Shown here one piece after another: positions 2,511 through 55,495 of a DNA stretch of 64,000 nt. This DNA comes from Eledone cirrhosa (taxonomy: Eukaryota), in assembly GCA_964016885.1 (NCBI GenBank), contig OZ024743.1, positions 242,916,001 to 242,980,000 on the forward strand. Reading direction: 5' to 3'. Each line of letters starts with the position of its first letter. Position 1 is the stretch's first letter. Both the position numbers and the translations under genes were made by a program. The notes beneath the pieces are model-generated. The model was not told where the DNA came from and did no database searches. It worked only from the letters and a program-made list of their open reading frames with translations.

Positions 2511-3165
2511 GTATATATACATACATATATGGTCCCATAGCTCCTGATAGAGTCATAGGGGCATATTGACACAGCGTTTCTTGGGCATTTAAGCCTGGCG
2601 GAGTCCATCCTCTCCACTACAGCAGATTGCTTCCAGGGAAATATAGAAAGTGAGAAAGAGAAAATAAGAAAGAGATATAGAGGAAGAATCGATCTCACTA
2701 CTAGACTGGTACTTTTTTTATCGACCTCAAAAGGATGGAGGGCAAAGTTGACCTCGGTGGGAGTTGAACTCCGAGAGAAGAGAGCCGGAACAAATAGCAT
2801 AAAGCATTCTATCCAACATTCTAACTCTGCCAATTCGCCGTCTATGGTATATATAAGACTACATTATTTAATGTACCCGTACCTTTTTCATACAATAATG
2901 TGTAATTTGAGGGAGATGTAGCTGCTATTTCTAGCGACGACATAGTGGCTTCATTACGGGGTTTGAACAAAATAAGGTTTGTCAGAGTGGTAGGGGTGAT
3001 TAAGAAAGGACTCATTGTTGTTGTTTAGCCCCAGGTCAGTACTAATCATTCTATCTGTATTTGGACTGTATATCCATGACTATTTGTATATAAACATAAA
3101 CATAGATATGTGTATGTGTGTGTGTGTATATAGACATGGTCGTATAGTTAAGGAGTTCACTTCAC

Positions 3166-7980: not shown

Positions 7981-8056
<76 letters not shown>

Positions 8057-8220
8057 AACGTGGTTTCGCATTAAGGTTGTTTATTGATTATACACAGTTA
8101 CGACCGTTTCACAGTTAGGTGGCTCAGGATCCATGTAGCATATAGACTCTGCCATGGCATAGGGTGCTGATTTGGGTACCTTCCTCTGCAAACCACGAAT
8201 CTACTGAACAACTTAATATA

Positions 8221-8348
8221 TTCCTGATGATTTCCTTCGAATAAACAGTTCTAGTCCTGTAGAAGCCATTTCTATATTAAATTTGATGTTTACACTCTAC
8301 TAATTTTTTCAGTACCTTACTGTGGTTACTCCTGATTGAACCTGGGAC

Positions 8349-8352
<4 letters not shown>
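8221..8352 (+). mobile_element. PLE-type terminal fragment with degenerate HHR (family B)
   Basis: TTC-CTGATGA-TTTCCTTCGAAT-(G lost)AAA-CAG-TTCTAGTC-CTG-TA-GAA. Homologous to 14663-14714 and 37907-37959. The tail is shared with 69-111. Confidence 0.65.
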
Positions 8353-8403
<51 letters not shown>

Positions 8404-8497
8404 CTTTGGTATGTTCATATCCATGGAGCGCTTGTCTACACAATACGGAAGTTGCGTTTCGCTAATTTCTACGATTCTCGCTAAATTTATATTTGTG

Positions 8498-8595
<98 letters not shown>

Positions 8596-9336
8596 TATAC
8601 ACACACACATATATATATATATACACAGACGTATGTATACATATATATATATGTGTGCGTGTGAGGGTGTGTATATAATATATATATTTACATATATATA
8701 AGGAGAAAAATAGAATAATAAAGATGAATAAAGAAAAGTGTGAGAAAGGGAGGAAGGAGAGAAGGAGAGCGTAGAGAATAGAGGTAGAAAGGAAGGAGTA
8801 TACGATAGGGGGAAGGGTGTAAGGGAGAGTAGAAAGGAGTGTAACGGAGGGGAGAAAGGAAAAGAAGGTTAGAGGAGATAGTAGGAAGGGGTGTAAGGAA
8901 GTGGAGAAGGGTGTAGGAGAGAGTAGAAAGGAAGGAGGAGAAAAAAGGATGGAATGAAGGAAGAAAGATGAGAAGAAATGAAAGAAAATAGAAGGGGGAA
9001 AATGAAAGGGGAGAGAGCAAAGTAAGAAGGGGTGCATATACATTATATATATGTGTGTGCTGGAATCCGTCAGTTCCGACGATGAGTGTTACGGTTAATT
9101 TGACCAACGGAACAACCAGCTCATGAAATTAGCATGTAAGTGACCAAGCATTCCAAACATGAGCACGATTAACGTAGTTCTCAGGGAGATTTAGTGTGAC
9201 ACAGGGCTGGCAATTTTAATGACAAGTACAATTTTGTCTGAGTTGCTCTCAAAAGTGTTAAATGAACCCATTGACTGTGTATATATATATATATATATAA
9301 TATATAAGATCAAAAGATGGTTAAAAGAGTTCCAAG

Positions 9337-9404
9337 TATTTTATTATGCGCATTTCAAAAACAAATATCATGGGATGATATCTGCGTTCTCATCAGATAA
9401 AATA
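9337..9404 (-). ncRNA. Type I hammerhead ribozyme (PLE left arm)
   Basis: Minus strand: UAUUUUAU-CUGAUGA-stem II (GAUAUCAU ccc AUGAUAUU)-GAAA-UGCGCA-UA-AUAAAAUA. The core is intact, stem I is 8 bp and stem III is palindromic. Confidence 0.85.
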
Positions 9405-10634
9405 GGGAGACGTGATATGAAGCTTAAAAAACACTTGTGAGCAGTGAAGTTTTAAATCAACATATGAAAAATAAATTAAGATGGATGTATGAGATTGGGA
9501 AAAAGTGAGGGGGGAAGTAAGGAAGAGGAAGAAATAAGAGTAAAGGATGGTGGGGGAGGAGTATAAGAAGGAAGGATGAGAGAAGAGGAGAAATCGGTGA
9601 TAGAGAGAGAGAGATAGCCTTTACAACTGAGAAAATATTGTCTCACAGAGAGAAATTAAAAAGCCGTTGGAAGATAATAGATAATTTAAAAGATTTTGAA
9701 ATTAAAAGTTAATGAGGTTTATGCATGAAGAAAAAGGAATTAAGAATAGTATTAAATTAAGGTTTGTATATTGAAGGGTTTAATAATATGTGCGAAGAAA
9801 AGAATTTATTAATATGTATTATTAAAATAAAAATATTAATGATATTAAGGATATAATGTGAAAAGAAGGAGAGGAATAGATGAGTTATGAATTTAGGGGC
9901 ATTTGTTAGGGTTTAAGTTTGTTTTTATGTATTGTAATATGTATACGTAAATAGTATGTTTAAAATGAGTGTAGAAGGAGAGAAGAAAAAAGAATGTTTA
10001 AGGAAGAAAATATCTAACATCAAAAAGTATATATGTTTACGAAATATTTTCTAATGGTAATATTATAATATATTAAAAAGAAATTAGTTAGGGTTTAAGT
10101 TTGTTTTTATGTATTGTAATATGTAAAAGTAAAAGTAAGTAGTAGGTTTAAAACGAGCATGAAAGGATAGAAGAGATAAGAAAAATTTAAGGAAGAAAAA
10201 AATCTAACGTCAAAAAGTTTATGTTTACGAAGGACTTCTAATGGTAATATTATAATGTATTAAAAAAATAGTTTTTATGGCCAATAATATGAGGAAAGAT
10301 GGAAGAATGGATAATGTTGTAGTGAGTAATAATATGAATTGAGAAGTAGTTGGGAAGAAAAAGTACAGATTAGAGATTAGAAATTAAAAAAGAAAAAAGG
10401 AAGAAAGGAAAATGATAAAGAAGAATGACATAGAATGAGTAAATTGTATTATATAATATATAATACTGAAATAAGGTAGAAAGATGGGTATATTTGTAAA
10501 AGATATATAAGCCTTTGAGAAAAGGATTTTAAACTAGTAAGGTATTGAGATATTAGCTGTATACTTTATGGAATGTTTTATGGGATTTATGCAAGCAGAG
10601 CGAAAATAAATCTGTGCGTCTATTTATTATAGAA

Positions 10635-11716
10635 CTAGCAGAGGTACCCGGCGTTGCTCGGGTATTAAATAGCAGTTGTGTATACCATTTATGTCAATAC
10701 TTCAGTGCTACTTCGAAAACTATACTTTTACAAAATCATCGGCTTTTTCCAAAAGAGGATTCCTGCCCCCAGGGGTCCCCTACTCAATATGTGCCAATTC
10801 TGAGAGTTCACATTCATCTGTAGGACAAACGTAGCCCATGTGTCAAGTTTTGTGAAAATCGGTTGCGAACTCTAGAAGTTATGACGTTTTGTTGCATTGC
10901 ACTGCAGTTCTTCAGTCGACTCCAAGGAAGTGGTTAAAGGGGGTCATCTGCTGGGAGGCCCTGTAATCAATATCTGTAAAAATGAAAGTGCCCATGACCA
11001 TCCGGAGTACATAAGTAACCTATGTCTTAAGTTTGGTGAAAATACTGTAGAAATGCATAAGGTTTATACACGCGCGCGCTCGTGTGTGTGTGTGTTTGTG
11101 TGTGTGTGGGGGGCATGTATTTGTGTGTGCGTCTGTATGTGTATGTCCGTCGGGGCATGCGTAACGTATGTACTGGCCTAAATCTTCACTATTTACTTTT
11201 ACTATTTTAATAACCTCTGTCATTTTCGTTTTCAATTTTATTTACATCGTTCTTAAACTCCGGCGCTGGAAATCATTCTGTTATGTTAAATAGAATATTA
11301 GTCTAACGACTCCATTTATACCATAAACTTGGTCTTGTCTTTGCATGAAATTGTTCTTCTCGCTCCACATAACGACGTATTATCCTCGCTTTTTTTCCCG
11401 TTCATTGCCAGGGAACGTCTTCACGGACCAAAACATCGTCTTGCTGTTTTCGTTCGGTTGGAACGTTTCTCGGAATATTGACTTCTGCGTTCACAGATTA
11501 CACTCAGTTCAATTTGAATGGGAAATTCCTGTTTCATCGATTTTCTCCGTAACCATGGAAGCCTGTACCCTAAAAGTCGACCCAACGCCTCCTCGGGTCA
11601 TTCTGCATAACTGTGTAAATTTTCGCTGCATTCCACCAAGCCGTTTCGACGTTTATCCGACTATACCTACTTACTTAAATATACAACGTCCGACCACTTC
11701 CACTTTATATAGTAGA
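10635..11716 (-). mobile_element. Non-autonomous Helitron (1082 bp)
   Basis: Minus strand starts 5'-TC and ends CTAG-3', with the subterminal hairpin ACCCG-AGCAACGC-CGGGT. It sits between A and T with no TSD. The empty site is present in the right PLE arm. Confidence 0.93.
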
Positions 11717-12400
11717 TTGAAATTAGATATAATGGTAAATTTCTCGGCTAGGCAGAGATTACATGTTCTGGATAGGGAAGAATTCAGGTAAGGAAAGGCG
11801 GAACAAACCTTCCTCCAAGATATGTTATAGTTAATATTTTTGTTTTTCAAGGACCATATGAGTTCCGAGAGTGCCGTGTTAGTTCTTTTAAGTTGGTATC
11901 TAAAAGACGATTTGTGATTATAAAATCTAGCTTTAAAGGAAGTGGAAGTGGAACCGAAATAGGTAAAAGAATTAGTATCAGTTATAACCTTACATTCATA
12001 GACCAAGTTTTTATCAAGACAATGGTTATTAAGAGGACATTTAGTTTTAATAGGGCAATTACAATTACGTTTAGAGAAATTAACAGAGTTATTAACAAGT
12101 GACCTAGTATTCTTTATAGAAGGAATTGGATTGGAGAAGTTATTTACGATAGGAACAATAGTTTCCTGATTTAGATTGGTATTATGAACATTCAACGAAG
12201 TTACGTTTGACGTCGTATTTAAATTTACAGAATCTAGCCTAGAGTTAACAATGACGTCGGGTATACTACTGCTATTATTATGACGCTCAGTGTTGGAAGG
12301 ATGTAATTTATTATTTAATATTATATTTTATTGTTGTGTTTAGAGATAATGTTAGAGATGTTGGAAGTGGTGGAATAAGAAAATTTAATTCTATGTTTTA
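11717..12400 (-). pseudogene. Penelope GIY-YIG endonuclease and linker region (disrupted)
   Basis: KHRIKFSYSTTSNISNIISKHNNKI linker, then a frameshift, then CNCPIKTKCPL..NLVYECKV..YFGST..FKARFYNHKSSF..TALSELIW..CNLCLAEK. The C-terminus resumes left of the Helitron (10634 to ~10549). Confidence 0.9.
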
Positions 12401-13688
12401 CAATTCTTCCCTATCAAGAACATGTAATCTCTGCCTAGCCGAGAAATTTACAATTATATCTAATTTCAATTCTATAATAAATAGACGCACAGATTTATTT
12501 TCGCTCTGCTTGCATAAATCCCATAAAACATTCCATAAAGTATACAGCTAATATCTCAATACCTTACTAGTTTAAAATCCTTTTCTCAAAGGCTTATATA
12601 TCTTTTACAAATATACCCATCTTTCTACCTTATTTCAGTATTATATATTATATAATACAATTTACTCATTCTATGTCATTCTTCTTTATCATTTTCCTTT
12701 CTTCCTTTTTTCTTTTTTAATTTCTAATCTCTAATCTGTACTTTTTCTTCCCAACTACTTCTCAATTCATATTATTACTCACTACAACATTATCCATTCT
12801 TCCATCTTTCCTCATATTATTGGCCATAAAAACTATTTTTTTAATACATTATAATATTACCATTAGAAGTCCTTCGTAAACATAAACTTTTTGACGTTAG
12901 ATTTTTTTCTTCCTTAAATTTTTCTTATCTCTTCTATCCTTTCATGCTCGTTTTAAACCTACTACTTACTTTTACTTTTACATATTACAATACATAAAAA
13001 CAAACTTAAACCCTAACTAATTTCTTTTTAATATATTATAATATTACCATTAGAAAATATTTCGTAAACATATATACTTTTTGATGTTAGATATTTTCTT
13101 CCTTAAACATTCTTTTTTCTTCTCTCCTTCTACACTCATTTTAAACATACTATTTACGTATACATATTACAATACATAAAAACAAACTTAAACCCTAACA
13201 AATGCCCCTAAATTCATAACTCATCTATTCCTCTCCTTCTTTTCACATTATATCCTTAATATCATTAATATTTTTATTTTAATAATACATATTAATAAAT
13301 TCTTTTCTTCGCACATATTATTAAACCCTTCAATATACAAACCTTAATTTAATACTATTCTTAATTCCTTTTTCTTCATGCATAAACCTCATTAACTTTT
13401 AATTTCAAAATCTTTTAAATTATCTATTATCTTCCAACGGCTTTTTAATTTCTCAGTTGTAAAGGTTATCTCTCTCTCTCTATCACCCATTTCTCCTCCT
13501 CTCTCATCCTTCTTTCTTATACTCCTCCCCCACCATCCTTTACTCTTATTTCTTCCTCTTCCTTACCTTTTCCACCCCACCCCCTCACCTTTTCCCAATC
13601 TCATACATCCATCTTGATTTATTTTTCATATGTTGATTTAACACTTCACTGTTCACAAGTGTTTTTTAAGCTTCATATCATGTCTCCC

Positions 13689-13759
13689 TATTTTATCTGA
13701 TGAGAACGCAGATATCATCCCATGATGATATTTGTTTTTGAAATGCGCATAATAAAATA
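13689..13759 (+). ncRNA. Type I hammerhead ribozyme (PLE right arm)
   Basis: TATTTTAT-CTGATGA-stem II-GAAA-TGCGCA-TA-ATAAAATA. Predicted cleavage is after A13751. Confidence 0.87.
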
Positions 13760-13879
13760 CTTGGAACTCTTTTAACCATCTTTTGATCTTATATTATTTA
13801 TACTCCAGTCCTACAAACTGCAGAGTGCTACTTATCCGATATTTGCATTGCTTTATTGTGCTACAATAAAACTCACCTC

Positions 13880-13991
<112 letters not shown>

Positions 13992-14148
13992 ACTATATCA
14001 TTTTTAAGACATTTTATGACATTATGTGCATCATGTATTCTGTCTTTTTTCATATAGCGCTGGCCTCGGGACCCCCCTGCTGGTCATTTAACCTTGTTCT
14101 GGTGACGCAGCTCGATGGAGCATGCAACTACTGATATACTCATGTTTA

Positions 14149-14198
14149 TAGGCTCTGAAGGTTCCTGCCATGGTGTATGGATGAAACACTGTTAGCTA
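14149..14198 (+). ncRNA. Degenerate hammerhead-like motif
   Basis: TAGGCT-CTGAAGG-TTCC...GGAT-GAAA-CACTG-TT-AGCTA, with one core substitution. Followed by AATAAA, a short tail and (TA)n. Confidence 0.45.
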
Positions 14199-14251
14199 AT
14201 AAAACAATGTATTTCTAAGCACTCTTTGGTTATTCCTATAACTATATATAT

Positions 14252-14325
<74 letters not shown>

Positions 14326-14332
<7 letters not shown>

Positions 14333-14605
14333 AAAAGAAATCGAAAATGCAACTGGAGTATTTTAAAGTATATTTATTTATTTCCTTTACCGGTTTCACA
14401 GTTCTTATGCTTTTCAAAAGTAGAATTAAGATGGGGGAGGGTTTGTGGTTTGTCTTAAACTACAAACCTCCATCTCAATTCTACTTTTGAAAAGCATAAG
14501 AACTGTGAAGCCGGTAAAGGAAATAAATAAATATACTTTAAAATACTCCAGTTGCATTTTCGATTTCTTTTCCTTATACTTTCACCCGTGTAGGACATCT
14601 GGGTT
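14326..14605 (+). mobile_element. Fold-back PLE-like element (~125-bp inverted arms) with decayed minimal HHR
   Basis: 14326-14451 and 14457-14578 are near-perfect reverse complements. The arms contain CTT-TTGAAAA-GCAT..TGT-GAAA-CCGG-TA-AAGG. A 27-bp unpaired tail follows. Confidence 0.7.
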
Positions 14606-14649
14606 TTTTTATATTAAAAAAAAAAAACCTGCTTTTCTTATATATATAT

Positions 14650-14714
14650 TTAATATAGAAATGGCTTCTACGGGACTAGAATTGTTTCATTCGAAGGAAA
14701 TCATCAGGAAAGCC
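14650..14714 (-). ncRNA. Hammerhead ribozyme family B copy (stem III partly decayed)
   Basis: Minus strand: GGCUUUC-CUGAUGA-UUUCCUUCGAAU-GAAA-CAAUUCUAGUCCCG-UA-GAAGCC. Confidence 0.65.
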
Positions 14715-15150
14715 CATATACTATATTTGTGGCCCTTTTTACATATGCACACAGAGTGAAATAAATTGTCCTGCTGAAAGACACGACACAACACCGGCGT
14801 AGATCGAACACACGACCGTTATGATTGTGAGCTGAACACCGTAACCTTTAAGCCACGTGCCTTCACAGTATAGAGAAATAGAAGCAAGAAAATCAGGAGG
14901 AAAGAGAGGAAAGGAGAGATAGAGCGGAAAGAGAGAATAGGAAGAAAGAATTAGAAAAGGGGAGGGGTGAGGAACAGAGAAGAGGAAGGGGGGGGGTAGA
15001 AAGGGAGAAATGGCAGGGGAGTAAACGAAAGATTGAGATGAGTAGAGAGAGAGAGAGATGAGTATAGGGAAATGGAAAAATAAGAGAGGAAGATAGATAA
15101 ACAGAGAAAGGAAAATGAAAGTAGAACAAAAAAGGAGAAAATAGAGACGT

Positions 15151-15206
<56 letters not shown>

Positions 15207-15651
15207 AATAAAGATTCAGCGAGAATCGCATTTTCGGCGGGCAGGAAAAGCGAAACGAAACGCAATTTTCTCTATTTTCTTCTCTCTCTCATACACAACT
15301 TTGTATCTCCCCCTTTCTATTTATATTTGTGGATGTGCATATATATATATAAATGCTTTCTTGACCACCTTTTCAGTTTTGTATGGCTTCTTAACACATT
15401 GTTTAGCTCTTGTTTTTAACTATTGAGCACTTTGACAGTATCATTTCTGATTTTTGCGATAGAGAAAAATAGACAGAGAGAAATTGATATTGAGAAAAGG
15501 TGAAAAAGAGAGATGAAGTGTGTAACACAGGCTACATATGTATGTGTATATATTTATGTAGGCATGAGTTAAAATTCATTGTTGTTGTTTAGCCCCAGGT
15601 CAGCCTCGAGCAAGCAGAGTTGTGATAAAAGATACTGCAACCATAACCATC

Positions 15652-15696
<45 letters not shown>

Positions 15697-16378
15697 TCCA
15701 CAAAGTATGCATATATAAAGGGCCACAAATATAGTGTATATATATATACAATTACCCAATGGTTTTATTTAACACTTTTGAGATCAACTCAACCAAAACT
15801 GGCTCTCATTCTATGAAACAAAACCACCCATTTTAAAGGATTCCATTTAAATTTAAATATTCCAACATAATTTTAAATAAGAACCATTTAAGTTACTATC
15901 TTAGTAATGAAATAACTAGTGATTTTAGTAAATCCTTCGAAATTCTTCATTAATTCATTAAAATTAAGAATATTTAAATAGAAATGTGTGAGGCAGATTT
16001 GGCTATTATTTCTAGCACAATAGGTGACTATATAGAGGCCTCCCTTATTGGCTCTTTAGCAGTGTTTGTGTGTCATTGATTGAGTGTGAAGTGTGAGTGG
16101 AGAGAAAGAGAGAGAGAGAGAAAGAAAGAGAGAGGGGAGGAGGAATAGTGTGAGGGAGGTAATCTGTAGTAATAACTAGGTCACAGCAATGATAAACTAT
16201 ACTATAGCAATAATTATTAATCCCAACTTGGCTATGCTGATGATGTACTACTAGTAATATTACTAAAACAGTCACATACATACATGGCAGGCTCTGGAGC
16301 AGTAGCAAGAGGAAGGGGAGGTAGAGGTGAAAAATGCAAGCATACACATATATACATTCATATACATACACACATATA

Positions 16379-22403: not shown

Positions 22404-22500
22404 TTTATATGTGTGTGTGTATATATATATGTGTGTAAGAGAAAAGCTGAACCATATATCTACTTGTATTTAGTTCACTCATTAAATCTCTTAAACTGAA

Positions 22501-22536
<36 letters not shown>

Positions 22537-22539
<3 letters not shown>

Positions 22540-23507
22540 GAACTCCTATACGCAGACGACCTGACACTCATAGCGGAATCAATGGCCGAGCTAGAGAAGA
22601 AATTCCAAACATGGAAGCACGGCCTAGAGTCAAAAGGACTTAAAATTAACCTGGCTAAGACCAAAGTTCTAGTTTGTAGGAAAGAAAATAAGGCGGCGGT
22701 CCCTTCTGGGAAATGGTCGTGCTTGGTGTGTAGGAAAGGCGTAGGTAGAAACTCCATTTTATGTCCTAAATGCAAAGTATGGGTGCATAAAAGATGTAGT
22801 GGGATCACAGGTAAGCTAACTAAGAACATAGATTTTACATGTGGCCGGTGCTCTGGTGCAATAAGTAGCAGCAAGTGCCCACAAAATACTAGCTCTTTCA
22901 ATTGCGCAGAGGGTTCTATAGAAATAGTGGACAGTTTCCGTTACCTGGGTGATAAAATCAGCAGTGGGGGGGGGGATGCTCTGAAAGTACAGTAGCTAGA
23001 GTCAGAACTGGTTGGAAAAAGTTCAGAGAGCTTATACCACTATTAGCTGCTAAAGGGTTCTCCCTAAAAATGAAAGGCAGGTTGTACGATGCCTGCATAC
23101 GAACAGCAATGTTGCATGGCAGTGAGACCTGGGCATTGTGTGCAGAGGATATACGCAGACTAGAGAGGAACGAAGCTTGCATGCTCCGCTGGATGTGTAA
23201 CAGTAATATACGTGAACGGCAAAGCATAAACGAACTAAGGAAAAAATTAGAAATAAGAGGGATCAGATGTTGTTTACTCGAGAGAAGGCTACGTTGGTAT
23301 GGACACGTGATGCGCATGAAAGTCGATAGCTGTATAACAAAGTGCAGGGCAATAAAGATAGACGGTAGTCACGGAATAGGCAGACCTAGAAAAACCTGGG
23401 ACGAGCTGATAAACTCCGACCTCACACACTTACACCTCTCCAAGACAATGTCACTGGACCGAGACCTTTGGCGGTACTCAGTAACAGAGAAGACCCGCCT
23501 TACCTAA
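22537..23507 (+). pseudogene. RTE reverse transcriptase C-terminal part with embedded PHD finger; one frameshift in the poly-G at ~22966-22976
   Basis: ORFs 22582-22995 and 23070-23507 join across the G run. C4HC3 motif at 22720-22851. Confidence 0.9.
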
Positions 23508-31169: not shown

Positions 31170-31825
31170 AAGCAGATAAAAAATTAATCATTCTTTCATA
31201 ACTTGGTCCATCAGTTTTATTCCTCTATAGTTTCTCCTTTCTAGAGCATCCCCTTTGCCCTTGTAAATTTATGATTGTACTGCTGCACCAGTCATTAGGT
31301 ATGACTCTGTACTGTATTACCTGATTGACTATGCAGATTGACAGTCCGGCTCCTACTTCTCCTAATACTTTAAGCATCTTGGCAACTATCTCTGATGGTC
31401 CCCGCGGCTTTACCATTCTTCATCTCCTTGATTGCTTCTTTGACCCTATGCCAATTTCAATAGCTGGTCCCTCTATTGTGTAAGATGGGTCGGAATAGTT
31501 TCTTTTTCTCCCATTCATTCTCTACATTCATCAACCTCTTTCTTTTGAACATCAGTAGTTGCTACCATGTAACATTGTTGTTCATATACAAGCATCATAC
31601 AATCAGCCTTTCATTTTTAGGGAGAAACCTTTTATGACCAACAGCAGTATTAGCTCTCTGAACTTTTTCCATCACGTTCTTACTCTGGCTACAGTACTTT
31701 CAGAACATCCTCCCCCACTGCTGATTATGTCACCCAGGTAACAGAAAGTGTCTACTATTTGTATAGAACCATAGGAGCTAGTATCTTGTGGGCACTTGCT
31801 ACTTACTGCACCTGAGCATTGGCCA
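31170..31825 (-). mobile_element. Decayed, internally deleted RTE LINE (same family as 22537-23906)
   Basis: GPSEIVAKMLK..VIPNDWCSSTI..KG, and [44 protein letters not shown]. Confidence 0.8.
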
Positions 31826-31882
31826 TATATATGTATATGTGTATATAAATACATATATATATATAGATGTATATGTGTATAT

Positions 31883-31955
<73 letters not shown>

Positions 31956-32357
31956 CATAAATAGATGTATATGTGTATAAATATACATATATAGATGTAT
32001 GTGTGTGTGAGTGTGTAAATATATATATATCCTGACACTTAACAAAGGCAGTCGACATTAAAACATACAAATTTATACAATTAGTTTAGTTATAAAAACA
32101 TTTATAATCATATTAAAATAATAATCATATTACAATAATGCTATTTATAACAAGCTGTTTATCCTTGGAACAGAGACACCCATCTACATGTCCCTGGGGT
32201 GCATTGACACCTTTACTACACTAACAAACAGGCTGATGTATGAACTAACAAGGTAGCTTTGATATGGTCAATTAGGCTGAGAGAAATAGGAGGCAAATTC
32301 TATAGTCATGTGCTAATATCTAAAAACACAAACTGATAATGCAGCCCTAGCCGCAGT

Positions 32358-39221: not shown

Positions 39222-39560
39222 CATCATCATCATCATCATTTTACGTCCACTTTTCCCTGCTTGCAAGGGTGGGACGGGAACTGATTCTGGCTTGATTTCT
39301 ACAGCTGGAGGCCCTTCCTAACACCAACCTCATTTACAGTGAGTGCTGGGTGCTTTTTGGCCGTGGCACCTACACGTCCACTTTACAGTGGAATGATAGG
39401 GACCCCAATCCCTATCATCTCATTTCTACAGCTGAGTAAACTGGAGCAATGTGAAATAAAGTGTCTTGCTCAAGGAAACAACACATCACCCTGTCTGAGA
39501 ATTGAACTCACAACCTTTCGATTGCAAGGCCAATGTTCTAACCACTAAGCCATGTGCCAC
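39222..39560 (-). mobile_element. Composite tRNA/RTE-tail SINE (young family A)
   Basis: Highly similar over the full length to 42641-42980, 47468-47810 and 55158-55495. Confidence 0.9.
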
Positions 39561-42640: not shown

Positions 42641-42980
42641 CATCATCATCATTTCATTTTATGTCCACTTTTTCCCTGCTTGCAAGGGTGGGACGGGAAC
42701 TGATTCTGGCTTGATTTCTACAGCTGGATGCCCTTCCTAACACCAACCTCATTTACAGTGAGTGCTGGGTGCTTTTTTGCCGTGGCACCTCCACGACCAC
42801 TTTGCAGTGGAATGATAGGGACCCCAGTCCCTATCATCTCATTTCTACAGCTGAGTAAACTGGAGCAATGTGAAATAAAGTGTCTTTCTCAAGGAAACAA
42901 CACATCACCCGGTCTGAGAATTGAACTCACAACCTTTCGATTGGAAGGCCAATGCTCTAACCACTAAGCCATGTGCCTCC
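42641..42980 (-). mobile_element. Composite tRNA/RTE-tail SINE (family A) with ATATT TSD
   Basis: Full length. ATATT at 42636-42640 and 42981-42985. An empty-site paralogue lies at 42241-42345. Confidence 0.92.
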
Positions 42981-43351
42981 ATATTATGTATGTATACTAT
43001 ATACAACCTGTTTATATATATATAATATATCTATATATGTATAACCTAGTTACATATAGTATATACACTATATATAACCTCGTTATATATGGTATATGGT
43101 CATGACAAAGCGTCCACCCTACACTGTAAGCTGGTTGTGTAAGTGTCACAACAAAAAGCACCACCACTCACTGTAATGTGGTTGGCGTTAGGAAGGGCAT
43201 CCAGCTGCAGAAACCGAGCCAAAAGCAGTTCTGTTTGAGCAAGACATGGTCACCTGACCTGGTCTATCTCACAACAGAACAACTCGTCTAACCCATGCTA
43301 GTGTGGAAAATGGACATCATTAAATGGTGATGATGATTATATATATATATA

Positions 43352-47307: not shown

Positions 47308-47467
47308 CAAGATTCATGATCATAGGTAAGGGTTGACACCAATAGGTTTGAACAAGGTAAATATTATTTCACTTGCCTCATTCTGCTTGACATTTTTAAC
47401 ATAAGCAACAACAAAACATACACTACATTGTATATATAACTTTATCGTTTTACACCAAACATACACT

Positions 47468-47810
47468 GGAGGCACATGGCTTAGTAGTTAGAGCATTGGC
47501 CTTGCAATCGAAAGGTTGTGAGTTCAATTCTCAGACCGGGTGATGTGTTGTTTCCTTGAGCAAGACACTTTATTTCACATTGCTCCAGTTTACTCAGCTG
47601 TAGAAATGAGATGATAGGAACAGGTCCCTATCATTCCACTGTAAAGTGGACGTGTAGGCGCCACGGCAAAAAAGCACCCAGCACTCACTGTAAATGAGGT
47701 TGGTGTTAGGAAGGGCATCCAGCTGTCTGTAGAAATCAAGCCAGAATCAGTTCCCGTCCCACCCTTGCAAGCAGGGAAAAGCGGACGTAAAATGAAATGA
47801 TGATGATGAT
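47468..47810 (+). mobile_element. Composite tRNA/RTE-tail SINE (family A) with ATACACT TSD
   Basis: tRNA head with A box TGGCTTAGTAG and B box GAGTTCAATTC, CCTTGAGCAAGACACTT core, RTE-like tail and (GAT)n. TSD at 47461-47467 and 47809-47815. Confidence 0.9.
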
Positions 47811-54740: not shown

Positions 54741-55157
54741 CGAATAACAATATAGTCTTTTTTAGTTATAATGTTGTCCAAGTACTGGTCGCTCTCTGAT
54801 AGGTTTGTGGTAGAGCCTGTAGCACTGGAGACTTCCACCGTTCTTGCACCCCCCCCCCCCCCCGACCACATCCCTACTCACTGCCATCGGGGCAGAGTTG
54901 GCTGCCCGCAGGTACAAGCCCCGCATGGTGGAGTTGGCTACCCACAGGTACAAGTCCCACGAGGTGGAGTGGCTGTTCTAATACATCTCCCTCACCATCC
55001 TCCAGGGCAGTATATTCTCAATCCTGGGATGATGAGGTGGAGGGTAAGTTAGTTGGAGGTGGAGGATACTCCTTCAGACATCACACATATACACAAATTG
55101 TTTACAAACATCTTTTAATTCACTTTCTTGTTTATATTTTCATATTTTAGTTCTAGT

Positions 55158-55495
55158 GGAGGCACATGGCTTAGTGGTTAGAGCATTGGCCTTGCAATCG
55201 AAAGGTTGTGAGTTCAATTCTCAGACCGGGTGATGTGTTGTTTCCTTGAGCAAGACACTTTATTTCACATTGCTCCAGTTTACTCAGCTGTAGAAATGAG
55301 ATGGTAGGGACTGGGGTCCCTATCATTCCACTGCAAAGTGGTCGTGGAGGTGCCACGGCAAAAAAGCACCCAGCACTCACTGTAAATGAGGTTGGTGTTA
55401 GGAAGGGCATCCAGCTGTAGAAATCAAGCCAGAATCAGTTCCCGTCCCACCCTTGCATGCAGGGAAAAGCGGACGTAAAATGAAATGATGATGAT
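55158..55495 (+). mobile_element. Composite tRNA/RTE-tail SINE (family A)
   Basis: Nearly identical to the reverse complement of 42641-42980. Confidence 0.9.

Follow-up and report, generated by a model that had tools for sequence, protein, structure and literature searches.

Results

Organisation of the locus

The window analysed is a stretch of 64,000 nt from Eledone cirrhosa (contig OZ024743.1). It contains a head-to-head pair of Penelope-like 3' ends, both truncated at the 5' side and lying between two microsatellites, with the following features:

9280-9301, no strand: target microsatellite, a (TA)n run at the tail-less left end, seen in the sequence and overlapping the ambiguous element end
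9292-10634, minus: left arm, outer piece, with the ORF end (10634-10553), 3' UTR and hammerhead motif, without tail
9337-9404, minus: type I hammerhead motif of the left arm, by alignment (fold -12.2 kcal/mol, z -1.72; predicted cut after 9345)
9650-10634, minus: identical tract, left, with the same letters as 12470-13454
10635-11716, minus: non-autonomous Helitron, 1,082 bp, inserted in the ORF of the left copy; its flanks rejoin to uninterrupted right-arm sequence
11717-12398, minus: left copy, inner piece, 94-97% identical to four of the long family copies (L061, L063, L064 and L067)
12399-12401, no strand: head-to-head junction of both truncated 5' ends, by comparison with L063, L064 and L067
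12402-13802, plus: right arm, with the final 49 ORF codons (stop codon at 12551), then the 3' UTR
12470-13454, plus: identical tract, right, with the same letters as 9650-10634
13689-13759, plus: type I hammerhead motif of the right arm, by fold (-15.7 kcal/mol, z -2.71), family variation and dimer fold; predicted cut after 13751
13803-13881, plus: one-sided tail, by end counts among family matches and fold; 79 nt, or as many as 87 should the short end lie at 13794
13882-13988, no strand: target microsatellite of the tailed end, (CT)n followed by (TA)n, seen in the sequence

The outer arms (9292-10634 on the minus strand and 12470-13802 on the plus strand) align at 96.6% identity over 1,356 columns with 10 mismatches and 5 gaps, and an additional inner inverted piece of 69 nt (11716-11784 against 12402-12470) matches at 97.1%. 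The first-pass annotation had described two near-identical opposite arms; they do align, but their differences are spread unevenly, with none in 985 nt and 12 substitutions in the remaining 417 nt. Nor is the left arm an unbroken piece, since it continues past 10634, is split by the Helitron and resumes at 11717-12398. This inner piece holds a 5'-truncated ORF with an Asn-rich insert, a Cys-rich linker, GIY-YIG (LVYEC...TYFG) and most of a CCHH motif, and has a 4-nt insertion at 12319-12322. The outer boundary of the left arm lies between 9292 and 9302. The junction consists of 3 nt of uncertain origin, and the 5' ends of the arms otherwise abut.

The right arm has a private 21-nt deletion near 13449; a 20-mer from inside the deleted piece occurs 48 times in 92 family loci. 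Its 3' UTR contains an internal tandem duplication of about 185 nt (12838-13021 and 13025-13203). Both arms carry a 3' UTR of 1,251 nt with 73% A+T, so the ORF end followed by an AT-rich 3' UTR of more than 1.2 kb, noted earlier for each arm, is confirmed. The same holds for the last 85 bp or so being kept in the right arm only, as a tail of 79-87 nt, and for the missing reverse transcriptase (RT), the longest family frame here being 218 aa. The overall reading as a 5'-truncated inverted Penelope-like insertion with hammerhead motifs was right.

The insert in the left arm starts with TC, ends with a hairpin followed by CTAG, lies between A and T and has no target duplication, all of which agrees with non-autonomous Helitrons as described in the available text of PMC4344730. 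Among other copies the end is CTAG in 10 of 11 and CTAA in one, and the next base is T in 11 of 11. The family, with 1,847 first-look candidates, is not matched to a named Helitron, and a Helentron-type identity was rejected on the TC/CTAG ends. Neither the Helitron nor the split left arm figured in the earlier sequence-only reading.

Family identity

In family copies, as distinct from this locus, a single frame of 715-760 aa comprises RT (YRDDGL) together with a GIY-YIG domain at its C terminus (LVYEC...TYFG); nearly the whole GIY-YIG endonuclease domain is held by the left copy. The CCHH motif (H of FYNH, CNLC and the last H of CLH) aligns with 19 homologues, and both cysteines are invariant. 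Homologues numbered 204 at E <= 0.001 among 8,000 scored, some with Pfam GIY-YIG or RVT_1; among 23 aligned members GIY-YIG was matched in 2 and RVT_1 in 1. The profile check for GIY-YIG that had been proposed gave no Pfam match for the two ORF pieces of the locus, nor for two long family ORFs, and a PDB sequence search with the family ORF gave no match up to E 10. An atlas search gave clusters at 0.95-0.98, and in some of these 26-38% of the members carry GIY-YIG, which is to be taken as a lead only.

Motifs and layout identify the family as a high-copy Penelope-like retrotransposon with a C-terminal endonuclease; its 3' end has 2,241 first-look candidates. The linker between RT and endonuclease has a conserved CxC-x5-C-x5-C pattern. 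Compared with the Neptune and Nematis elements, it fits the 'cysteine-rich domain' of PMC3846280 and not the literal CX2-5CxxC of PMC8557442, as far as the available text of both papers goes, and the family may be Neptune-like or Nematis-like. The family sample used below is the best-scoring part of thousands of candidates and not a random draw.

Hammerhead motifs

The hammerhead assignment is based on alignment, folding and family variation. Both arms have the core CUGANGA...GAAA...UH with three helices, a pattern kept in 127 of 152 family copies, here as CUGAUGA, a 16-pair stem II with one mismatch, GAAA, a palindromic UGCGCA and an AUA triplet. In the right motif, stem I is formed by 13689-13696 and 13752-13759, the core by 13697-13703 and 13740-13743, stem II by 13704-13739 and the palindromic stem III by 13743-13750. 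The claim of an intact type I hammerhead in each arm stands for the core, but stem II of the left motif is 3 nt short at its top, and both arms have G-U instead of G-C at pair 10.1-11.1; U occupies position 11.1 in 152 of 152 copies. The G-U pair and the AUA triplet are family-wide features, and CpG decay was therefore rejected as their origin. The covariance-model search suggested earlier failed to support the motif, as an Rfam scan gave no hammerhead match in 8000-16000 up to E 1 or in 13600-13850 up to E 10. The Rfam matches that were seen were microRNA-like, lay on simple repeats and a nearby palindrome, and were all below gathering scores.

Stem I and II variants present in at least 6 of 153 copies keep pairing in 8 cases and break it in none, whereas the rarer ones keep it in 8 and break it in 50. 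Judged from these sequences, the fold is conserved among source lineages, and because the rare variants mostly break pairing, the hammerheads of inserted copies appear to decay after insertion. In 11 hand-picked hammerheads no two-sided changes were found; all stem changes were one-sided, and covariation did not exceed the shuffle control.

In the monomer fold stem III closes a 2-nt loop, while two same-strand copies cofold at -42.3 kcal/mol into a dimer whose stem III has 8 bp. The motif is thus predicted to be a dimer-type hammerhead, its active stem III requiring two copies on the same strand. It shares with known dimer-type hammerheads the conserved core, a long helix II, a small palindromic helix III, dimer action and neighbours on opposite strands. 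It differs in that helix II has 16 pairs instead of 7-8, helix I has 8 pairs, there is no bulged base after position 9, the triplet is AUA, and all 15 classes listed have G-U or A-U in place of the highly conserved G-C at 10.1-11.1. A non-LTR retrozyme, described in the available part of a preprint (bioRxiv 10.64898/2026.07.22.740005) as tandem non-coding units each with a same-strand hammerhead, was rejected: the two motifs here occupy opposite strands, and both are attached to pieces of ORF.

Layout and 3' ends across the family

Two 3' ends dominate among 161 hammerhead-bearing matches, 73 ending at 13881 and 64 at 13802. A dinucleotide run follows 69 of 72 short ends, against 222 of 1,840 random 30-mers, and 70 of 77 tailed ends. 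Because a (TA)n stretch adjoins the short end, its position can be given only as within 13794-13802. At its terminus the tail has a small predicted hairpin and an AC-rich run. In the tandem copy L064, where the upstream repeat is in tandem, the tail sequence continues toward the ORF start, and about 80 nt past the tail there is a likely start codon.

When 39 other copies were picked by their tailed end, 24 had a tail-less inverted partner upstream, 23 of which end at 13800-13802. The sequences thus place the family among elements with tandem or inverted pseudo-LTRs and an optional one-sided tail, and the inverted pair with a one-sided tail is the family norm, a layout already published in the available text of PMC8557442 and PMC3846280.

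Arm divergence has a median of 3.4% within a locus (21 pairs) and 7.6% between loci (120 pairs). This lower divergence of same-locus arms is as expected for a single insertion event. That the arms are independent insertions of the same family, head to head by chance, is scarcely credible. The family is dense, and a neighbouring copy of another subfamily occurs in L061 (75-86% match, opposite direction), but here the 5' ends abut within 3 nt, the pairing of tail and no tail recurs in 24 of 39 loci, and arms of one locus are about twice as alike as arms of different loci; independent insertions were rejected on this arm divergence.

The identical tract

Zero differences in 985 nt, where the other 417 nt diverge by about 3%, has a probability of 5e-13 at the outside rate. 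The tract is bordered by the Helitron on one side and the 21-nt deletion of the right arm on the other. The inner border can be placed only as near the Helitron.

Seven letters that are rare in the family are common to both arms within the tract, five of them clustered at 13200-13231, and none is common outside it. Among 40 scored candidates, 13170-13260 is fully matched by these two arms alone, the next best reaching 95%. Because these letters are retained, the tract did not arise by collapsing to the majority sequence of the family. The density of rare letters is 0.71% in the tract, 3/426 in the left arm and 8/495 in the right arm; from such small counts the donor arm cannot be named, and the tract is nearer to the left arm.

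Arm-to-arm gene conversion, in which one arm was overwritten by the other, is the likely origin of the perfect tract, judged from these sequences. The alternative is an equally ordinary Penelope-like insertion in which an assembly or polishing artefact wrote the letters of one arm onto the other. This is the less likely explanation, but one to be taken seriously. The tract ends at two large indels, where read alignments would clip too, and its length is the extreme of the sample, the longest perfect run in 38 other arm alignments being 423 nt. Inverted structures of this kind are also known to trouble assemblies, according to the available text of PMC8557442, and no long exact piece of the locus was found among matches in DNA sequencing runs, which were to other family copies only, with the longest exact pieces listed at 46-63 nt, which speak neither for nor against the tract or the junctions. 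Against an artefact, the seven family-rare letters show no collapse to the majority, and in the same assembly the arms of most long-armed pairs still differ by 2-7%, so no general homogenising step acted. Shorter perfect blocks at two other loci (316 and 423 nt, P < 0.01 each) form a graded pattern that suits sporadic conversion. Among published work on gene conversion between inverted repeats, none was found on Penelope arms, although a search is no proof of absence.

Discussion

The preferred reading, held at a probability of about 0.65, is an RT-less head-to-head pair of 5'-truncated Penelope-like 3' ends between microsatellites, probably from one insertion event, later split by a Helitron and then probably subject to copying of the tract. 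From the observed anatomy, family, two fixed 3' ends, microsatellite targets, Helitron and perfect tract we infer the remaining steps. The RT and GIY-YIG protein of a full copy would have cut a (TA)n site, and reverse transcription would have started at two fixed points about 80 nt apart, giving a tailed and a tail-less arm. Both strands would have ended early and been joined at their 5' ends. The arms may then have drifted about 3% apart while the Helitron landed in the left ORF and the right arm lost 21 nt, after which homologous repair or template switching between the arms could have erased the differences between the two large obstacles. The hammerheads would be passengers, selected in active source elements where same-strand copies pair through stem III, and are predicted to be silent here.

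Inverted insertions of endonuclease-positive Penelope-like elements have been described (Craig et al. 2021, PMC8557442; Arkhipova et al. 2013, PMC3846280). In the available text of these papers the tail is 30-40 nt, compared with 79-87 nt here, and rotifer pLTRs are about 200 bp, far shorter than the present arms with their 1.25-kb 3' UTR; the nested Helitron and the homogenised tract are extras at the present locus. The closest parallel to the two ends is PAc, a Poseidon element of Anolis carolinensis (Frangieh et al. 2024, PMC11167929). The available part of that study reports two RT start points bounding the tail, and PAc has likewise two fixed 3' ends, AT-rich targets, an AC-rich stem-loop at the far end and an upstream hammerhead. 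Its hammerhead and tail overlap the ORF start, whereas the likely start in L064 is about 80 nt past the tail. PAc belongs to the Penelope/Poseidon clade, which lacks a Zn-finger-like linker according to the accessible text of PMC8557442, whereas the present family has a Cys-rich linker.

Should the locus be transcribed, a read-through hairpin can fairly be predicted; the open frames listed in the window identified no host gene, and a search of sequencing runs listed no RNA run that contains the sequence. The whole-arm duplex is predicted at -2,115 kcal/mol, compared with -94 and -186 for single arms, so the first-pass claim of a long dsRNA hairpin keeps its duplex while its self-cleaving sense motif in the 3' arm is predicted to be locked. 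Paired with its antisense twin the sense hammerhead reaches -105 kcal/mol, against -15.7 for the motif alone, and because this pairing outcompetes the fold, no cleavage is predicted. One head-to-head transcript moreover cannot supply an active stem III because two same-strand copies are needed.

A functional unit, in which the transcribed hairpin feeds ADAR or small-RNA pathways and is cut by its sense hammerhead, is therefore very unlikely. The predicted duplex is very stable and would include a perfect stem of 985 bp should the tract be real, and siRNAs matching Penelope inverted regions exist in Drosophila (PMC3681739). But besides the sequestered motif and its requirement for a same-strand partner, single minimal motifs did not cleave in vitro (PMC4209133), the anole motif depended on the element's own protein in the available text of PMC11167929, rare stem variants mostly break pairing as inserted copies decay, and nothing sets this locus apart from many alike. 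Hyper-editing of paired inverted repeats is strongest in octopus and frog (PMC5625713), so both the small-RNA and the editing fate are already published in general form. It is doubtful that, with most insertions arising as inverted repeats, the head-to-head Penelope insertions of this genome are a large, self-renewing source of near-perfect dsRNA whose stems are returned to full identity well after insertion by conversion halted at large indels and which feeds editing and small RNA.

The layout, the hammerhead type and the possible dsRNA fate are all published, and little is added as a system. The family allows the two-start model of the Penelope tail to be tested cleanly at population level, in a seemingly Neptune-like element whose tail is about double the length in print. 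The tract, if real, would be a natural record of gene conversion between inverted arms that ends at large indels, and it would caution against dating such insertions by the identity of their arms.

Structure of the inverted pair

The left arm (9292-10634, minus strand) and the repeat portion of the right arm (12470-13802) are 96.6% identical over 1,356 columns, which bears out the inverted repeat claimed by the first-pass annotation. Each arm holds the ORF end, a 1,251-nt UTR with 73% A+T and a hammerhead motif. The extension to 13881, the tail, is found in the right arm only; it measures 79-87 nt because the short, tail-less end (equivalent to 13802) sits in TA-rich sequence beside (TA)n. The ~85 bp previously given for the tail is a fair figure. 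RT is missing at the locus, as stated earlier. The earlier two-arm picture is right as to arms, UTRs and motifs, but the left arm continues past 10634 to 12398.

Main features of the inverted pair
9292-10634, minus strand: left arm, outer piece, aligning to 12470-13802
10635-11716, minus strand: insert of 1,082 bp assigned to Helitrons, with TC/CTAG ends and rejoined flanks
12470-13802, plus strand: right arm, repeat portion, aligning to 9292-10634

Beyond the insert and up to 12398, the left copy codes for an Asn-rich insert, a CxC-x5-C-x5-C linker, the GIY-YIG motifs and most of CCHH. The truncated 5' ends of the copies abut at 12398/12402 with 3 nt in between, and the unit is therefore a longer and a shorter 3' fragment placed head to head.

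On the minus strand the insert has a 5' TC and a 3' hairpin followed by CTAG. It sits between A and T without duplication, and joining its flanks restores the unbroken sequence of the right arm. These are Helitron marks according to PMC4344730, and on its sequence the insert is a Helitron. The genome has 1,847 first-look candidates for the 3' portion of the insert; the 39 others that were scored are 96-98% alike, and among 11 copies examined the CTAG end is present in 10 and the next base is T in all.

The Penelope-like family

Searches of the genome (3.0 Gb, 1,796 contigs) gave 2,241 first-look candidates for the family 3' end (40 scored) and 55,129 for the endonuclease piece (150 scored). 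Long copies encode RT and GIY-YIG in a single frame of up to 760 aa, and their RT, linker and endonuclease motifs correspond to those of 19 aligned homologues out of 204 in the database. The sequences of this genome's family gave no match in Pfam, PDB or Rfam, and the Rfam hammerhead and Pfam GIY-YIG checks proposed earlier likewise came out empty; of the 23 aligned members, Pfam GIY-YIG is found in 2 and RVT_1 in 1. From motifs and alignment the family is putatively assigned as Penelope-like with a Neptune-like linker.

In one tandem copy (L064:2843-2930) the tail leads, after a further ~80 nt, into a likely start codon in a frame that agrees with the N-termini of the homologues; the tail therefore lies in the 5' leader, outside the ORF. 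Two loci on separate contigs, L061:3210-8622 and L062 (C4 182.7 Mb, C2 392.1 Mb), have a long family ORF in common, with the same deletions and the same adjoining copy of another subfamily, and could reflect either recent copying of the segment or its duplication in the assembly.

The head-to-head layout with a one-sided tail is the family norm. Within 10 kb around each of 39 other scored 3'-end matches, best-scoring copies rather than a random draw, a head-to-head pair is present at 25 loci, and 24 have the exact form seen here, in which one arm has the tail and its inverted partner lacks it. Such a pair was found at 21 of 40 endonuclease-query loci, likewise best-scoring copies, a proportion that leans high because three of these were picked or placed for two close opposite matches. 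At 92 loci, with L062 excluded because it nearly duplicates L061, the 161 hammerhead-bearing matches stop most often at 13881 (73) or 13802 (64). A dinucleotide run follows 70/77 tailed and 69/72 short ends, compared with 222/1,840 random 30-mers. Median arm divergence is 3.4% within a locus and 7.6% between loci.

This type of layout is already published. PMC8557442 reports that the 5' end carries a 5'-truncated copy in inverted orientation and that one end has a tail, of 30-40 bp as opposed to 79-87 nt here; PMC3846280 gives the same arrangement, with the copies head to head, and PMC11167929 has two reverse-transcription starts delimiting the tail.

The 985-nt perfect tract

Between 9650-10634 and 12470-13454 the arms show no difference over 985 nt, compared with 12 substitutions in the remaining 417 nt; at a uniform rate the probability is 5e-13. 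Seven family-rare letters within the tract are present in both arms, and outside it none is common to both. The cluster at 13200-13231 is matched in full by the two arms alone among 40 scored candidates. One end of the tract coincides with the Helitron and the other with a 21-nt deletion private to the right arm; no other difference confined to one arm is as large. Large heterologies typically halt conversion tracts. These observations point to arm-to-arm copying in the genome, with a probability of about 0.65-0.7. That the identity is an artefact of assembly ranks second and is rather unlikely; the sequencing runs examined share no long exact stretch with this locus and weigh neither way.

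In 38 other arm alignments of at least 300 nt, perfect runs reach at most 423 nt. Perfect runs at P < 0.01 occur in 4/20 other same-locus pairs versus 6/120 cross-locus pairs; of those four, L067 and L133 are true zero-difference blocks, and in the remaining two the signal comes from a divergent block. Candidate shorter conversion tracts are seen in three inverted pairs: L133:3068-4387/5532-6913 (perfect block of 423 nt), L067:2249-3457/5563-6778 (316 nt) and L164:4128-4669/5458-5999 (400 nt).

Hammerhead motifs

The hammerhead previously noted in each arm holds as a core, with CUGAUGA, a long stem II, GAAA and the palindrome AUGCGCAU retained in both. The pattern is kept in 127 of 152 family copies. 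Pairing is kept in 8/8 stem I and II variants present in at least 6 of 153 copies and broken in 50/58 rarer ones, which argues for selection on the fold in source lineages, followed by decay in inserted copies. Stem changes are one-sided throughout, and in a test for covariation 11 hand-picked copies scored no better than shuffles. Pair 10.1-11.1 is G-U or A-U in the family, unlike the usual G-C.

In folding, stem III of the monomer cannot close over two bases, and two sense copies cofold as a dimer with an 8-bp stem III (-42.3 kcal/mol). This matches the dimer action proposed for such hammerheads in PMC4209133, where single minimal motifs failed to cleave. Read-through RNA has only one sense copy, and its duplex with the antisense arm is far stronger than its own fold (-105 versus -15.7 kcal/mol). 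The inverted layout is therefore predicted to silence the ribozyme instead of using it. Of the hairpin with a self-cleaving sense motif suggested at first, the strong pairing is predicted but the motif would be locked.

Other features of the window

A near-perfect palindrome of ~250 bp (14326-14580, 91.7% to its own reverse complement) directly follows a (TA)n run and could be a MITE or the stub of another inverted-repeat family. Two open frames of 166 and 183 aa (22495-23507) may derive from an RTE-type LINE, of which they resemble the RT end and the 3' part, and a related piece lies at ~31672-32085 on the minus strand. Tandem arrays start at 3015 (50-bp unit, 94-98% identity, about 64 overlapping windows) and 18681 (21-bp unit, occasionally 19 bp). 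A dispersed ~320-bp repeat (94-99% identity, both orientations) occurs at 39236-39558, 42670-42981, 47456-47624 and 55157-55483.

Double-stranded RNA

A transcript spanning both arms, if made, would pair strongly; no host gene was recognised among the open frames of the window. In PMC3681739, siRNAs match inverted regions of Penelope copies, and PMC5625713 reports that paired inverted repeats are hyper-edited, with octopus and frog showing this most strongly. It is improbable that perfect hairpins maintained by conversion are a genome-wide source of dsRNA. As a dsRNA substrate the locus would be one among very many alike. The layout, the model for the tail start, and the siRNAs and hyper-editing of inverted repeats are already in print, and this locus adds one more case.
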